Part shown: piece by piece, positions 30,001 through 36,000 of the stretch | Position numbering within the stretch: position 1 is the stretch's first letter | Layout of the letters: every line of letters begins with the position of its first letter | DNA from: an uncultured bacterium | GTDB lineage: Bacteria; Planctomycetota; UBA1135; GCA-002686595 | Length of the DNA stretch: 64,000 nt | Direction of reading: 5' to 3' | Assembly: GCA_943787795.1 (NCBI GenBank) | Contig: CALSNU010000001.1 | Location: forward strand, 736,001 to 800,000 | Position numbers: made by a program

Positions 30001-33000
30001 AGATCTTCTCGTTGTAGGGGTCCATGAAGTGGTCGGCGATGCCGTCGCCGAACCGCCAGCGGATCCAGTTCTTGAAGTCTGCTGGCGCCTCGGAGCCCGT
30101 CATCTTCCGGGCATGCCACGCCTCGACGTAGCCCTTGAGGCAGTCGAAGTTCGCGTCCTTCGGGAGGTCCCCGATCCCGTTCTCGAAGGGGTAGTGCACC
30201 CAGCGATCCTCGAAGCGGATCTTGGTGTGCCGGTCGCGCTCGACGAAGGCGTCGTCGCCCCCCGCCTCGTCCTTCATCCACTGCATGGCGTCGGCGTCCT
30301 TGCTGAAGAGGATGTGCCCGCCCGCCACGTCGTAGGTGAAGCCGTCCACCGTCTTCGAGAGGCACAGGCCGCCCGCGACGGAGCCCGCCTCGAACAGGTG
30401 GAGCGACCCCATGGGGACGCCGCCCTGCTGGAGGAAACGAGCGAGGGCCATGCCGGAGATACCGGCTCCAAGGATCGCGATCTTCAAAGGGAGGACTCTG
30501 GGAAGGAGAGGAGCGTCTCGCGGGAAGGATACCGGGGTGCGAGGGCGCGTGCGGAACTCACCGGCTCCTGATCAGGGACGAGCGGTCCGGGAGCGCCTCG
30601 GGCCGGGTCCGCTCCATGTCCTCCAGCCAGCGCCGGGCGTCGGTGACGTACCCCGCCGTTGGCCGTACCCCCGGGCAGACGGCCTCGAAGTGTTCGTTGA
30701 AGGCGCCCATGACCAGTTCGCGGGCGTACTTGGCGAAGCAGGAGCCCAGGGCAGTGGGGAGCGAGAGGGTGTCCCCCTTCTGGACAAAGCGAATTCGCAT
30801 GCGCCGATCACCAGAGGTCACGAGGTAGTGGCTCTCCTGACGACTCTCCGAGAGGACCCGGACCGTGGAGAAGGGGACCAGGATCGAGAGGGCCCGGCCG
30901 TAGCGAGCCCTGCCGCCAAGGCGGTCGCAGGTGAAGTCCAGCCCCTCCTCGCCGAAGCGCTCGAAGAGGTCGAGGATGACCCGCGAGTGGTACGACCACA
31001 GGGTAGTGCCCCTTGTTATCGGTTCGTCCAAAGGACTCGTTCAGGGCGCCGGCGGGGACCACGGCGACGCCTGCTGAGACCACCTCGGCATCGGCTGCGG
31101 CGAGGCTGGCCGCGAGTCGGTCGCGGTGCTCGACGAGCTCGAGCGGCGTGCAGTGGAGCGGGAGCTCCGCCGGCAGAGCGGCGTACCAAGGATGAGCCCG
31201 CAGGGTTGCCGCGGTCGGGGCAAGCCCCTCCGGAGCGCTCTCGAGCAGGTCCGTTGCGCCCCGCACCGTCGAGCCTGCCGCGTCAAGGAAGGTGAGCGCT
31301 GTGGCCTCTAGCCGCCGGGCGCCCCGCGGGTTCCTCGTGAAGACCTTCTTCGAGTCAGCGACGACGAGCCGCTCCTTGTCCCGGCCGGGAGCGTCGCTCA
31401 CCGCGTCGGGGAGCGTGCTCCAGTCCAGGGTACCCGCGCGCCGGAACGCCGAGAATCCGATGGTCAGCGGACCCAGCATCGGGCCGTAGCCGGCCTCGTC
31501 GAGGCCCGCGTGGACCGTCATTGGCGCGGCGCCCTTCACGCGCTGGCGGCGTGGTTGTCCACCGGCGCGGGCTCGCGGCGCTTGATGAAGATCAGCAGCA
31601 GGACGAGGGCGAGCGACCCCAGCACGAGGGAGACGAGCTGGGAGGTGGAGAACATCCCGTCGAACCACAGGCCGCGGATCTTGTCCCCGCGGAAGCCCTC
31701 GATGGTGAAGCGTCCGATCGAGTAGAGGACGAGGAGCACGAGGGTGACCTGACCGGCGTACTGCCTGTGCCGGATCATCCACATGCCGAAGAGCCCCAGG
31801 GCCAGGGCGTTGACGCTCATCCAGGGCTGGGTAGCCCAGAGCACCTGACCCGCGTTCTCCGCGCCGAACAGGCTGGCGTCGGGGAGCGGGTCGGGGACCC
31901 GGATCGTCAGGGGGAACGGCAGGTTCTCGGAGCCCTCGGGCACGACCTTCCCGAAGTCGTCACCCACGAGGAGGCAGCCCACTCGTCCGACGGCCAGGCC
32001 GCAAAAGCCTGCGGCGAGCCCCAGGTCCAGGGCATGGGGGAGGTGGAGGCGGTACTTCCTGGCGGCATAGAGCCCGAGGGCGATCCCCCCAAAGGTGCCG
32101 CCGTACATGACGAGGCCGCCCTCCCAGTAGTAGAGGATCGTCATGGGGTCATCGAGGTAGCGCTGTCCGGTGGCGCTGCCGCGGAAGATCTCGACGATGA
32201 CGTACATGGCCCTGGCCCCAAGGAGGATCCCCACGAGGATCCACATGGGGACGGCGGCGAACCCGGGGGCATCGGCCTCTCGGTCGACGGCGTAGCGGTC
32301 GCCGAGCTTGCCGTAGAGGTGGGTGCCGACGAGGAAGCCGAGCACCACCATCAGGCCGAAGGCGCGCAGGGGGACGCCGATCAGCGGGATCTCGAAGAGG
32401 ATCGGGTACATGGCGGAGCACTGTACGCGGCCCCAGGGCGCAGGCGAAGGGGCGGGGTCGGGAGGATTTGCGGACAGGATTCGGGGAGGGGTGCCGCCGG
32501 GCGGTGCGGTGTGACCAGAGGAGGCCGTATAGTGTCGCGCCGCGAAACCAAGGCGCCGACCCGGGCTCCTCCGCGCTCCACACCATGAACACGCCCCCCA
32601 AGGCCAAGCTCTTCGTCGAGGGGCGCTATCTCAAGCACTCCCGAGACCTCCCCCAGACGGTCTTCTTTTGTCCCGAGTGCAAGGGGCACCCCCGGAGGCG
32701 CCGCAAGTGCGAGAAGTGCGAGGGGTTCGGCAAGCTCACCAAGGACTCGGTCCAGGAGCTCATCGGCTGGGTGCTCGGCAAGGCCGCGGGGACCCGCAAG
32801 CACAAGTTCCACGGCGCCGGCCGCGAGGACGTCGACGTGCGGATGCTCGGTGACGGGCGCCCATTTGTCATGGAGCTGGTGGACCCGCGGGACCACCAGG
32901 TGGACCTGGCGGAGATCGAGGCGACCATCAACTCGCGCAACGAGGGGCGGCTCGAGGTGCGCGGGCTGCACTGGACCCAGAAGGGCAGGGTGCGGTTCCT

Positions 33001-36000
33001 CAAGGAGGGCACCTTCGCGAAGGAGTACTGCGCCCGCGTCGAGGTCGACCAGCGGCCGAGCGAGGAGACCGTCGCGGCTCTGATCGGACGCCGCTACGAG
33101 GTCGCCCAGCAGACCCCGAGCCGCGTGGCGCACCGCCGAGCGGACAAGGTCCGTGAGCGCTGGATCGAGGTGCTCGACGTGCAGCTGGATCCCGAGGAGG
33201 ACCTGTTCCTCAGCGTCACCATTCGGACCCAGGCGGGGACCTACGTCAAGGAGGCCATCAGCGGCGAGGGCGGCATGAGCCAGCCGTCCATTGCCGAGCT
33301 CCTCGGGGTCGGCAGCGCCAAGTGCGCGAGCCTCGACGTCCTCGCGATCCTCGATCAGGAGGAGGGCGAGGAGGCCGGTGAATCCAACCCGACCTCATTG
33401 GGGTTCGGGTCAGGGCTCTCCTGAGCAGCGCGCTCCTCGGTCAAACCAGTCCGGTCCCGTCAGTCCGGTCGCGCCAGTACGGTCAAGTCCGTCCGGCCAA
33501 GACGGCTCGGCCAAGACGGCTCGGTCACGCCTGGCTCGGACTGGGCCAGCGTGACTCGGCAGGGCGGCCGCGCATGCCGGGCCGCTGCCGCGGTGCAGGC
33601 CGTGATTTCGCAGGAGCCCAGTTGGCTCCGGTCGTCCCGTCGACCGGGCGGTTGGCCGTGCGGGTGGTCGTGCGGGTGGAGGGGCGGGTCACGCCGCCCC
33701 ATGCCCGTGGGGCCGATTCGCTCGCTGGTGACGTCGGCGTCGCCGTGACGGCGCGTTCCCGTGACGGGATGCTGACCGGCCGGGGCCGCTGGGGTGACGC
33801 TGCCCGGGACAAGGCCCTGCGTGGGTCGCGACACTGCACGCGTCGCGACATTGCGCGCGGCGGGAGACTGAGTGGTTGGAGGCTCTGCTGGGTCGAGAAT
33901 CTGCCGGGTCGAGACTCTGCCGGGAGGTCTCAGCTCAAAAGAGCACGCCCATGACCGTCGCCTCGAAGACCCTCTTGGGCTGCAGCACGCCATCGCGCTC
34001 CACGAAGCCTTCGGCGCTGTACTTGAACATCCGGCTCCCCGCGCGCTCGAGCTTGACCGCGAGGAACATCGTGCAGGGCGGCTCCACAACGCCGCGGAAG
34101 CGGCAATCGTCCACACCTCCGAACCCGACGAAGCGCCCGTCAGACTCCTCCACCCTGTGCTTGGAGTAGTCGAAGGAGGCGATCTGCGCCGCCGTCTCGA
34201 TCATCAGCGCCCCGGGGAACATGGGGCGGCCAGGAATGTGATCCTCGGCCCACCAGTCCTCGCTCCGGATGGCCTTCACGCCAACGGCGATCCCGCCCTC
34301 CGCATCCACGTAGGCGAGGTGATCGAGCACAGCGAAGGTCCCCCGCTGCGCTAGGTATTCGTCCAGCGTCGCGCGGTTCACCGCGACGTGGGTCCGATCG
34401 ATGCTCTCTAGGTCGAGGATGGGTTGGATCGACATTGGGATGGGGTTCCAGAGGTGGGGAGCGGTCTTCTCTGCCGAACGGAAGCTCGGCCTCCACGACG
34501 ATTTGGGCCACAATGGTACGGAGACAGGGTGCGCGTATCGTTCCAATTCGCCGGGACCGCTGCGTTCCTGGCCTTCACGACGAAGACCTGCACCGGCAGT
34601 GAAACCGACCAGGACCCCATGAGACCCCCCCTTCGCTTCACGACCCTCGCCGTCCACGCCGGGCGGCGCCCCACCCCCCAGGACCCCGACCTCTCGCCCC
34701 CGATTCGCCGGGCGACCACGTTCCTCCAGCACCCCGAAGTGCATGAGCTCACCGACGCAGGGGACTGGTCGACGCCGCTGGTCTACTCGCGCTACGGCTC
34801 GCCGAATGCCTCGGACGCAGAGGAGGTCCTTGCGGCCCTGGAGGGCGCGGAGCGCGGGGTGCTGTTCGCCAGCGGCATGGCCGCCATCCACGCCATGCTC
34901 CTGCACGCCTTCCCCGGCGGGTCCGGGAAGGTCGCCCTGGCGCGTCAGATCTATGGGGGGACCAGCTCACTGCTGTCCAAGGCGCTCGCCTCCCTCGGCT
35001 TCGAGGTGATCCCCTTCGATGTCCAGGACGACGGGGAGCTGGGGGCCGCGCTGGCCGCTGGCGCAGGGCTGGTGCACGTCGAGGGGCTCTCCAATCCGAC
35101 CGCACTCCTCGCCAACATCCCTCGGCTCGCGGAGCAGGCTCACGCCGCGGGGGCGCTCCTGTCCGTGGACTCCACCTTCGCGACGCCGGTGGTCCAGCGC
35201 CCCTTGGAGCTCGGCGCGGACCTCGTGGTGCACTCGGCGACCAAGGCGCTCGCGGGTCACTCGGACGTGACGGCGGGCGTTGTCCTCGGGAGCGCGGCGC
35301 GGATGGAGCAGGTCGCTGGCTACCGAAAGCTCACCGGCGCCATCCTTGACCCGGCGGCGGCATGGCTGCTCCGAAGGAGCCTCTCGACCCTGGGGCTTCG
35401 GGTCGAAGCGCAGTGTCGGGCCGCGTCGGCCCTGGCCCGGTCGCTGGCCGACCGAGAGGATGTGGTCCGCGTCCACTACCCTGGCCTCCCCGGAGACCCC
35501 GGTCACTCGCTCGCGCCTCGCGTCCTGCTCGATGGTCTCCACGGGAGCATGCTCGCCTTCGAGCTCGCGGGGGGAGATGACCTCGCCCGCCCGTTTGTCT
35601 CGCGGTTGCGCCTCGCCGTGGACGCTCCGAGCCTCGGCGGTGTGGAGACCCTTGTGAGCATCCCGCATCTCATGTCGCACCCCGGTCTTTCGGCTGAAGA
35701 GCGCCTCGGGGTTGGCTTCGGACCCGGCTGCATCCGCGTGGCCTGCGGGATCGAGGACCCCGAAGACCTGGTCGCGGACTTCGCCTGCGCCTTCGACGAG
35801 CGTTGAGCGCTCAGCGCATGTTCATCGTCTCGAGCGTGGACTCGCCGGCGAGCAGCTTCACGTCGAGCCGGCAGCTGCGGCCCTCCTCTGCCTGGGTGGC
35901 GTTGACCCGCCACGGGCCGGGAGAGAGGTAGGCGACTCTGGCCCGGCCGAACTCGTTGGTCTCGCGCCGGAACGAGCCGACGCCGCTCCCGCGAAGGTAG

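Follow-up and report, generated by a model that had tools for sequence, protein, structure and literature searches.

A gene in the window (the whole 64,000-nucleotide stretch of DNA analyzed here) codes for a Pus10 reduced to its catalytic domain, and this protein is probably the tRNA T-loop pseudouridine synthase of the cell. TruB, the usual bacterial enzyme for this conserved pseudouridine, was not detected in the genome by any of three profile models. Reviews up to 2025 consider Pus10 to be absent from bacteria. Contrary to them, an entire class of marine planctomycete-like bacteria has a stripped-down archaeal-type Pus10 and no TruB. The relevant features of the window are as follows.

31536..32411, minus strand: lgt, prolipoprotein diacylglyceryl transferase (Pfam LGT, E 9.5e-40)
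32412..32584, no strand: divergent lgt/pus10 intergenic region of 173 bp, presumed from the gene arrangement to hold the promoters of both genes
32585..33424, plus strand: pus10 coding sequence, Pus10 without THUMP, catalytic domain alone (ORF and translation, Pus10_C, TIGR01213, AF2, PDB match)
32669..32752, plus strand: forefinger loop C29-V56, comprising a zinc knuckle (C29xxC32...C42xxC45) followed by an ffl2-like part, C45-V56 (alignment, conservation)
32819..32842, plus strand: catalytic motif G79-R80-E81-D82-V83-D84-V85-R86 with the catalytic Asp D82 (conservation in 120 sequences)
33113..33154, plus strand: thumb loop T177-R190 (TPSRVAHRRADKVR) with the H183-R184 pair (conservation; MjPus10 correspondence)
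33935..34420, minus strand: FabA/FabZ-like dehydratase gene, convergent with and downstream of pus10 (Pfam FabA, E 8.2e-18)

Domain architecture and predicted active site

The open reading frame of pus10 extends from an ATG at 32585 to a stop at 33424 on the plus strand and encodes 279 residues. Pfam Pus10_C (PF21238) matches the protein with 199.5 bits (E 7.6e-59, cut-off 27), residues 10-255 aligning with profile positions 1-231 of 232. NCBIfam TIGR01213 (‘tRNA pseudouridine(54/55) synthase Pus10’) also exceeds its curated cut-off (256.3 bits against 200). However, it is matched only at positions 160-401 of 402, indicating that the THUMP-containing N-terminal half is missing. No other Pfam domain, THUMP or Pus10_THUMP_arc was found in the complete 407-aa stop-to-stop frame. 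The ORF and both family models thus agree with the preliminary description, which had placed a short Pus10 homolog without THUMP at this locus. The N-terminal zinc ribbon and THUMP, which the window protein lacks, are accessory; the sole THUMP protein of the genome is an RlmL-type methyltransferase unlinked to pus10. Fly and worm relatives are likewise devoid of this accessory region (PMC1616971).

The AF2 model of the protein (pLDDT 94.1, pTM 0.89) displays a pseudouridine synthase fold that is nearest to solved Pus10. In a Foldseek comparison with the PDB, human PUS10 (2v9k) ranks first, with 31% identity, E 3.9e-24, TMq 0.76 and an rmsd of 2.2 A, and TruA comes next (4e-10). All 120 Pus10 sequences compared share G79, R80, E81 and D82 of the catalytic motif, and D84 is nearly invariant among them. 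This is the arrangement described for Pus10, with Arg two positions before and Asp two positions after the catalytic Asp (PMC6380271). The active-site Lys, Tyr and Leu are represented by K146, Y148 and L250, which are invariant in the same 120 homologs.

The four cysteines of the forefinger loop (C29, C32, C42 and C45) are also invariant across the 120 sequences. They align with the CSYCR and CNYTGKKYPTSV segments of Methanocaldococcus, corresponding to ffl1 and ffl2 by MjPus10 numbering (PMC3753934). In the window protein the zinc knuckle encloses the basic insert HPRRRRK; inserts at this site range from 0 to 6 residues, their length differing among families. The preliminary description had pointed out both GREDVDVR and CxxC..CxxC, and both are indeed present. 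The CxxC pairs, described there as N-terminal, are not the archaeal N-terminal zinc ribbon but form the forefinger-loop zinc knuckle within the catalytic domain, which is conserved in archaeal Pus10. In the thumb loop, T177, P178, R180, V181, R184 and R185 are invariant (120 sequences), and the HRRA motif including H183 is retained in every order sequence shown. The H183-R184 pair has H376/R377 as its MjPus10 counterpart, and the conserved residues of the window protein correspond to those that MjPus10 requires (PMC3753934), the mapping being made through that paper and the sequence of a close relative rather than MjPus10 itself. Judged by sequence, the protein possesses both RNA-pinching loops, and the gene found across the class encodes a genuine Pus10 whose active site is intact.

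Distribution of TruB and Pus10

The host genome comprises 4.71 Mb in 8 contigs, and marker genes put its completeness at 84.9%. The TruB_N profile produced no matches in it at E<=10, the best TIGR00431 match had an E-value of 0.3, and an HMM derived from three planctomycete TruB proteins and run with filters off reached E 0.26. The TruB search was positive in 14/14 control reference genomes. The earlier claim that the genome has no TruB is therefore borne out by all three models: with nothing better than E 0.26, the catalytic domain of the TruB/Pus4/Cbf5 family was not found.

It might be argued that a TruB is present but was missed, being either too divergent or located in unassembled DNA, in which case there would be no displacement. 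The incompleteness of the genome leaves some room for this, and so do divergent TruB-like genes elsewhere in the phylum that reach only E 1e-12 to 1e-20. We nevertheless regard a missed TruB as very improbable. In addition to the blank searches above, TruB_N exceeds the cut-off in none of the 101 genomes of the order, among them 51 of high quality and the single-contig G024 and G072. The weak matches in the order (E 0.02-0.97) include stretches of the Pus10 gene itself. Pus10_C, on the other hand, was found in 100 of these 101 genomes, the one miss being a 66% complete genome, and in all 86 genomes of the class sample. The earlier observation of Pus10 without TruB across the order is borne out in this larger sample.

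Outside the order, TruB_N exceeds the cut-off in 202 of 377 Planctomycetota genomes; the ancestral enzyme is therefore undetected across the clade yet present in sister lineages. Within the phylum sample (401 Planctomycetota genomes), TruB is missing from 60 of the 63 Pus10 carriers and present in 199 of the 338 non-carriers, an anti-correlation that is inflated by kinship among the sampled genomes. Of the 15 families outside the order that have Pus10, 13 are without TruB in any sampled genome. The strict mutual exclusion stated in the preliminary description has to be given up, since three of the 401 genomes (G141, G167 and the single-contig G432) keep both enzymes, which means that TruB and Pus10 are not functionally incompatible. 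Moreover, 139 of the 377 genomes outside the order, and at least 73 of the 243 high-quality genomes of the sample, have neither. In five such genomes searched with the full TruB model, nothing was found at E<=1. Loss of TruB can thus occur with no recognizable substitute in its place, and replacement by Pus10 is something we infer. In the genomes with neither enzyme, psi55 is either dispensable or made by an unrecognized enzyme, and such an enzyme could exist in the present genome too.

Genomic context and relationship to other Pus10 proteins

The pus10 gene lies inside a 1.45-Mb contig, between the bacterial lgt and fabA-like genes, and its GC content (0.69) is the same as that of its flanks. 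Within the order, a divergent lgt adjoins pus10 at 25 of 32 loci; the corresponding figures are 9 of 13 for loci of related Planctomycetota MAGs and 0 of 18 for loci from other orders. A FabA/FabZ-like homolog is the neighbor in 28 of 63 examined loci, all within the clade of the order. The cultured isolate Saltatorellus ferox Poly30 has a 281-aa protein ~74% identical to the window Pus10, encoded on a 7.7-Mb contig; cultured relatives of this kind bring the function of Pus10 within experimental reach. With the lgt adjacency conserved across families and GC like that of the flanks, pus10 is native. The nearest non-planctomycete relatives are archaeal (Iainarchaeota), which could hint at archaeal contamination or a mis-binned fragment. 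This explanation is next to impossible and is refuted by the contig context, the GC content, the Poly30 homolog and the synteny conserved across an order in which 100 of 101 genomes carry the gene.

The window protein is 41-44% identical to Pus10 of Methanocaldococcus, Iainarchaeum and Promethearchaeota. Compared with archaeal Pus10 of the M. jannaschii/P. furiosus type, the catalytic domain is alike along its full length, including GREDxDVR, the Tyr and Leu, the four-Cys forefinger loop of Mj length and the His-Arg thumb loop. In contrast, the window protein lacks the N-terminal half (zinc ribbon and THUMP, about 160-200 aa), carries a basic insert of five residues within the zinc knuckle of the forefinger loop and occurs in a bacterium in which, besides TruB, neither Cbf5 nor TrmY was found.

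The nearest group in the tree is Pus10 of Iainarchaeota (DPANN; ~340 aa), the joint clade having SH-aLRT and FastTree support of 99 each. The two share forefinger signatures (F/Y/H-[FY]-C instead of W-x-C, and G-x-L-[ST] instead of G-K-x-Y), and the N-terminus of the Iainarchaeota proteins is reduced too. However, the latter keep an N-terminal part of ~100 aa with a recognizable Pus10 THUMP (P0128, E 4.8e-7) and mostly lack the thumb-loop His. Since a single clade of all planctomycete Pus10 is not rejected by the AU test (p 0.265), the sister relation to Iainarchaeota is insecure. Pus10 proteins from other orders of Planctomycetota (~340-400 aa) belong to the same family, and 36 of 39 are found in genomes without TruB. 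Yet both trees place them apart from the clade of the order, their genes do not adjoin lgt, and they have an N-terminal extension that resembles the THUMP domain of archaeal Pus10 weakly and below threshold (10 of 18 loci, E 1e-5 to 8e-3).

Human PUS10 (2V9K), the best structural match, is also recognizable by sequence (E 4.8e-29). It differs in having a large N-terminal THUMP-containing domain and in lacking the four-Cys segment, seen as an alignment gap at residues 29-47 of the window protein. TruB, with the same proposed product (T-loop psi55), shares the pseudouridine synthase core fold (Foldseek 1k8w and 1r3e, E about 1e-6), but represents a different family, described in PMC3753934 as having a PUA domain and no forefinger loop.

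These relationships are consistent with a scenario in which the class ancestor (GTDB UBA1135, proposed ‘Saltatorellota’) would have gained an archaeal pus10 and lost truB, presumably in that order. Its Pus10 would have shed the THUMP domain along with the zinc ribbon at the N-terminus, with vertical inheritance of the gene ever since.

Putative role in tRNA modification

By analogy with characterized homologs, the window Pus10 is most likely a tRNA psi55 synthase, possibly making psi54 too. In the proposed mechanism, the catalytic domain alone would suffice as a minimal Pus10: the T stem-loop would be gripped between the zinc-knuckle forefinger loop and the His-Arg thumb loop, and U55 would be flipped out and then isomerized with Asp82. 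Pus10 would thereby provide the psi55 made by TruB in other bacteria. A precedent is P. furiosus Pus10, which brings psi55 back when truB is knocked out in E. coli (PMC1616971). The same enzyme forms psi55 on a mini-substrate consisting of the T-arm and acceptor and on tRNA without the 3' CA (PMC1616971), and MjPus10 is active on a 17-nt T-arm fragment (PMC7912444). Contacts by THUMP are therefore not strictly needed, and we infer both activity without this domain and tRNA U55 as the substrate. Loss of THUMP could, however, have altered the substrate range.

Neither TrmFO nor classical TrmA was found in the genome, its only m5U methyltransferase being of the RlmD type. The lack of an m5U54 methyltransferase noted earlier thus holds for this genome, but it is near phylum-wide (TrmFO occurs in 16 of 401 Planctomycetota genomes) rather than peculiar to Pus10 carriers. 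Nor does it hold for the entire order, as all three genomes of one family (f9) have TrmFO together with Pus10 and without TruB. In that family U54 is probably methylated, which leaves U55 as the Pus10 target. The remaining pseudouridine synthases of the present genome are six RluA-type, one RsuA-type and two TruA enzymes, the second TruA paralog being unusual; none is recognizable as another psi55 candidate.

A different, in our judgment unlikely, explanation is that Pus10 makes psi54 alone, in place of the m5U54 that the cell lacks, or acts on T-loop-like motifs of other RNAs. Psi55 would be either absent or produced by an unrecognized synthase, for example one of the six RluA-type or two TruA-type enzymes, and the unusual TruA paralog is a point in favor of this reading. 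The absence of TrmA and TrmFO fits such a role, as does human PUS10, which in cells makes mainly psi54 (PMC7912444). Moreover, the psi54 determinants of MjPus10 (a full-size forefinger loop, the Tyr corresponding to Y148 and the His-Arg thumb; PMC3753934) all have counterparts in the window protein, and the third of the phylum without either enzyme indicates that Pus10 is not required for TruB loss. On the other hand, no MjPus10 mutant kept psi54 after losing psi55 (PMC3753934), so that the activity on U54 rests on the machinery for psi55. Every characterized Pus10 is able to form psi55 (PMC7912444, PMC1616971). The combination of TrmFO with Pus10 in family f9, and an anti-correlation that is strong and specifically with TruB, also favor the psi55 assignment.

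Overall, all genomic predictions of the non-orthologous displacement put forward in the preliminary description held on larger samples, the neighborhood is conserved, and functional equivalence has a precedent in PfuPus10. Displacement of TruB by Pus10 is thus supported, with the same reaction in this organism suggested by analogy. The putative substrate is present: aragorn made 45 tRNA calls in the genome, and the ~41 canonical ones all have GGTTCRAnyC, with U54-U55-C56 in every canonical tRNA gene.

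The Pus10 protein and its missing N-terminal half

The gene in question occupies a single open reading frame of the window:

32585..33424, + strand, pus10, 279 codons, ATG start

Starting from the in-frame TTG further upstream, at 32468, would lengthen the protein by 39 residues, but more than 100 close homologues from the protein collection (about 273-300 aa) align with it from residue 1. The Pfam domain Pus10_C matches it end to end (E 7.6e-59, residues 10-255 against profile positions 1-231 of 232). With the NCBIfam equivalog TIGR01213, 'tRNA pseudouridine(54/55) synthase Pus10', the score is 256.3 bits (cut-off 200) and the alignment covers profile positions 160-401 of 402 only. 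Human PUS10 (2V9K) is the sole solved relative detected by sequence (E 4.8e-29). It is also the best Foldseek match in the PDB (E 3.9e-24, TMq 0.76, rmsd 2.2 Å) to an AlphaFold2 model built with 120 homologues (mean pLDDT 94.1, pTM 0.89), followed by TruA (E about 1e-10) and then TruB/Cbf5 (E about 1e-7 to 1e-6).

Residues C29, C32, C42, C45, H76, G79, R80, E81, D82, R92, K146, Y148, R184, R185 and L250 are invariant in an alignment of 120 diverse Pus10 sequences. D82 is the predicted catalytic Asp; R80, two residues before it, and D84, two after, match the Pus10 pattern around this residue described in PMC6380271. The thumb loop keeps its His-Arg pair (H183-R184). The CxxC..CxxC motif pointed out in the preliminary description is present, but it belongs to the catalytic domain, in whose forefinger loop it lies, and is not the archaeal N-terminal zinc ribbon. 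Its two CxxC pairs correspond in the alignment to CSYCR and CNYTGKKYPTSV in the Pus10 of Methanocaldococcus indicus, segments that agree in residue identity and spacing with forefinger segments ffl1 (Cys227-Arg231) and ffl2 (Cys238-Val249) of the M. jannaschii enzyme, as numbered in PMC3753934. Human PUS10, in contrast, has an alignment gap here. Between the two pairs sits a basic insert, HPRRRRK in the window protein and 0-6 residues long across the UBA1135 order.

The THUMP domain is absent, as had been stated before, and with it the whole N-terminal half. The 407-aa stop-to-stop frame of pus10 contains neither a THUMP match nor a zinc ribbon, and the DNA upstream is taken up by lgt, transcribed divergently. 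We rejected a split THUMP partner, the genome's single THUMP domain being part of an unlinked RlmL-type methyltransferase. In one other genome of the order, G010, the Pus10 match (G010:C110:106701-107501) is in two pieces, profile positions 1-181 and 184-231, about 78 nt apart, which may reflect an insertion or a local assembly problem.

TruB and Pus10 across Planctomycetota

TruB and psi55 are regarded as near-universal in bacteria. The genome under study (4.71 Mb, 8 contigs, 84.9% complete by markers) gave no TruB_N match at E<=10 in a search that was positive in all 14 control genomes. With the full TruB model TIGR00431 the best E was 0.3. It was 0.26 with a purpose-made HMM based on three TruB proteins from planctomycetes and applied, filters switched off, to all six-frame ORFs. 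The genes that flank truB in other planctomycetes were of little help in locating it: only rpoZ was matched in this genome, where it is followed by lpxK, and truB synteny is not conserved. None of the 101 order genomes, among them 51 of high quality and the single-contig G024 and G072, had TruB_N above the cut-off. Weak matches (E 0.02-0.97) occurred in 16 of them, at least three inside the Pus10 gene itself. Pus10_C was found in 100 of the 101 (the exception, G051, is 66% complete) and in 86/86 genomes of a class-level sample, in which only families of the order are represented. The earlier claims that this genome has no TruB and that the swap is order-wide are thus borne out. That a TruB is present and was missed is very improbable, and contamination as the source of the Pus10 gene is more improbable still; both are effectively ruled out.

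We also searched a 401-genome sample of the phylum with both profiles. TruB_N exceeded its cut-off in 202 genomes and Pus10_C was found at E<=0.001 in 68. Five partial Pus10_C matches (profile positions about 120-203), assumed to sit on TruB-like genes, were excluded, which left 63 carriers of full-length Pus10; of these, 24 belong to the order and 39 do not.

TruB and Pus10 in the sampled genomes outside the order (n=377)
TruB only: 199 genomes
Pus10 only: 36 genomes
Both TruB and Pus10: 3 genomes
Neither TruB nor Pus10: 139 genomes

The anti-correlation is strong, since 60 of the 63 carriers are without TruB, but it is not absolute; as the genomes are related by kinship, these counts do not amount to a statistical test. 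The 39 carriers outside the order represent 15 families, 13 of which have no TruB in any sampled genome. The mutual exclusivity proposed in the preliminary description needs softening, because three genomes have both enzymes. Two of these are fragmented MAGs of family f51 (G141 and G167). The third, G432 of family f92, is a single 9.2-Mb contig:

G432:C1:7363470-7364189, Pus10
G432:C1:8436291-8436716, TruB

Family f92 displays all three states (G291 TruB only, G321 Pus10 only, G432 both), and displacement may be in progress there. In these Pus10 proteins HHxC stands in place of the first CxxC.

Neither enzyme was found in at least 73 of the 243 high-quality genomes of the sample, nor in 19 of the 23 genomes of family f21. 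In five genomes of this type that are 90-97% complete, the full TruB model detected nothing at E<=1; G104, G105, G110, G111 and G113 are examples of the type. At the level of the profile searches used, this large class is real. In this third of Planctomycetota either psi55 is made by something unrecognised or it is not made. The five genomes with the excluded partial Pus10_C matches (G109, G155, G163, G179 and G329) all have a TruB_N match as well. In four of them its E-value is only 1e-12 to 1e-20, an indication of putative divergent TruB-like enzymes in parts of the phylum.

Pus10 is said to be absent from Bacteria in the reviews PMC6380271 (2019), PMC7912444 (2021) and PMC12710931 (2025). 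Here it is carried by a whole bacterial class and by at least 15 further planctomycete families, mostly without TruB, and database pipelines already annotate these proteins as Pus10. Full-text literature, within a coverage that leaves out dedicated work on Pus10 evolution, gave no discussion of Pus10 in Planctomycetes or Planctomycetota, and neither did the literature on COG1258. Among the matches listed for TruB with Planctomycetes nothing was relevant, and among those listed for T-loop modification the sole mention of Planctomycetes concerns folate-/flavin-dependent methyltransferases. The Pus10 family and the idea of non-orthologous displacement are already known; a bacterial, class-wide, THUMP-less Pus10 together with the loss of TruB is new.

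Origin and genomic setting of pus10

No close homologue of the window protein is long (range 246-358 aa), and those with names come from Planctomycetota. Among them is a protein of the cultured 'Planctomycetes bacterium Poly30', which has 281 aa, is about 74% identical and is encoded on a 7.7-Mb contig. The proteins of other planctomycete orders (loci L042-L058 and L061) are longer, of medium length, and in 10 of these 18 loci the N-terminal extension weakly resembles, below threshold, the THUMP region of archaeal Pus10. When the medium-length representatives nearest the order were used as queries, the best matches in species-representative genomes came from Candidatus Iainarchaeum (DPANN).

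Phylogenetic analysis placed the short forms of the order in one clade, both in a FastTree tree of 179 catalytic domains (support 100) and in an IQ-TREE tree of 109 rows (LG+C20+F+G4 PMSF, quick search; SH-aLRT 99). The latter joins this clade to Iainarchaeota-type sequences (SH-aLRT support 99). In neither tree do the 18 Pus10 of other planctomycete orders fall with it, which suggests that Planctomycetota acquired the gene twice independently. A topology in which all 43 planctomycete rows form one clade was not rejected by the AU test (delta lnL 19.1, p-AU 0.265). The archaeal origin of Pus10 in these bacteria is clear, because the bacterial carriers are nested among archaeal diversity.

The divergent lgt neighbour is shared by 25/32 order loci and 9/13 loci of related MAGs, and by 0/18 loci of other orders. 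Since this adjacency is kept across families (at least f1, f2, f4, f6, f8 and f9), we consider pus10 stable since its transfer. A full-length Pus10 with its N-terminal domain is also present in an Elusimicrobia MAG (locus L109, contig JAGHAG010000072.1, 4.9 kb). It is nested among Thermoplasmatota sequences, so that the contig was either binned wrongly or records a further transfer from archaea to bacteria.

Upstream of lgt, two ORFs overlap each other in different frames:

30558..31031, - strand, first ORF
30808..31782, - strand, second ORF

They seem to form one conserved gene (30558-31782) with the N-terminus LDEAGYGPMLGPL and no Pfam match. Its downstream piece has homologues in the same position in 15 related loci. 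The split may be due to a frameshift or an assembly error, or there may be two genes.

Four marine metatranscriptomic runs of one study contain contigs that are 99-100% identical to stretches of pus10; examples are:

32475..32836, covered stretch
32919..33237, covered stretch
33215..33524, covered stretch

As evidence of pus10 transcription this coverage is weak and no proof, because intergenic DNA and neighbouring genes are covered alike and DNA carry-over is possible. The covered regions include the 510 bp (33425-33934) between pus10 and the fabA-like gene, where ORFs had no Pfam match and no Rfam match was found; Rfam detected no RNA family anywhere in the window.

T-loop modification and the function of Pus10

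Of the 45 aragorn calls in the genome, all roughly 41 canonical tRNAs carry GGTTCRAnyC, i.e. U54-U55-C56. Published activity data concern full-length enzymes. According to PMC1616971, the Pus10 of Pyrococcus furiosus forms psi55 not only on whole tRNA but also when the 3' CA is missing and on a mini-substrate of T-arm and acceptor; it restores psi55 in an E. coli truB knockout as well. The M. jannaschii enzyme forms both psi54 and psi55, for which a 17-nt T-arm fragment is a sufficient substrate (PMC7912444). As reported in PMC3753934, the catalytic Asp and a Leu are required for both products, whereas psi54 alone depends on the forefinger loop, on a Tyr and on the His-Arg pair of the thumb. 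Every residue known to matter for Pus10 is retained in the window protein. Its catalytic domain alone would have to recognise the T stem-loop without THUMP, which is plausible, because Pus10 acts on T-arm fragments and because fly and worm relatives without THUMP are mentioned in PMC1616971 (2006).

The window protein is probably the psi55 synthase of these bacteria. The main competing explanation restricts its action to U54 or to other RNAs, with psi55 either lacking or supplied by an unrecognised enzyme. This appears unlikely; the genomes with neither enzyme (139 of 377) keep it alive.

The protein could in addition make psi54, producing an archaeal-type T-loop, although overall we rate this as less likely than not. 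The same reserve applies to the wider proposal that one THUMP-less Pus10, obtained from an archaeon of DPANN-like (Iainarchaeota-related) type, turns U54 as well as U55 into pseudouridine, so that the tRNAs would carry psi54-psi55 and not T54-psi55. This proposal draws support from the lack of TrmA, TrmFO and TrmY in the genome and from the psi54 determinants that are kept, namely a forefinger loop of full or extended length, Tyr148 and the His-Arg pair of the thumb (compare PMC3753934). The union of the order's clade with Iainarchaeota (SH-aLRT 99) favours the DPANN-like donor, but the AU result is compatible with another donor.

The preliminary description had found no evident m5U54 enzyme. 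This stands for the genome under study: TrmFO was not found (the best match is MnmG), the TrmA model reached 60 bits against a cut-off of 335, so that there is no classical TrmA, and TrmY was not found either. It does not extend to the entire order, as family f9 has TrmFO. All three sampled f9 genomes (G008, G016, G023) carry it together with Pus10 and without TruB, and within the order it was found only in f9 (f1 0/12, f10 0/5, f2 0/3 in the phylum sample). Since TrmFO is rare phylum-wide (16/401 genomes), the missing of known m5U54 enzymes is a trait of the phylum, unlinked to Pus10. The TrmA model TIGR02143 had 0 matches in the 401 genomes, but its control was positive in E. coli only and the model is too narrow to establish absence. 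In f9, U54 is probably methylated and Pus10 left with U55, a split known from Pyrococcus (PMC7912444), and the fate of U54 probably differs among families of the same class. U54 could also be methylated, instead of converted to psi54, by an RlmD-type enzyme. Such methylation occurs in Thermococcales (PMC3753934), and the single m5U methyltransferase of the genome is of the RlmD type (TIGR00479, 273 bits). No pattern linking the basic forefinger insert to the absence of TrmFO emerged: the insert is missing in f9, where TrmFO is present, yet f5 and one f7 genome lack it too.

If the proposed function is correct, a bacterial case is added to the known convergence of T-loop modification enzymes, a core tRNA-modification gene has moved from archaea to bacteria, and a natural minimal Pus10 becomes available for working out the contribution of THUMP. 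If the psi54 reading is also correct, psi54 would have its first case in Bacteria, and nature would have provided a demonstration that the catalytic domain can recognise tRNA on its own. The proposed 'Saltatorellota' are the counterpart of this class, and bioRxiv 10.1101/817700 names for them axenic type strains including Saltatorellus ferox Poly30 (DSM 103386); with axenic cultures in existence, the function is open to test.

The other pseudouridine synthases of the genome comprise six of the RluA type, one of the RsuA type and two TruA. Most bacteria have one TruA per genome; both paralogues here score above the TIGR00071 cut-off:

G000:C4:41217-42017, - strand, TruA
G000:C2:172005-172775, + strand, TruA

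The window itself encodes a 226-aa RluA-family pseudouridine synthase without an S4 domain (2701-3381, + strand; 141 bits, below the TIGR00005 cut-off of 192.7). Finally, aragorn called a tRNA-SeC(tca) at G000:C3:34220-34319, which suggests that the organism uses selenocysteine.
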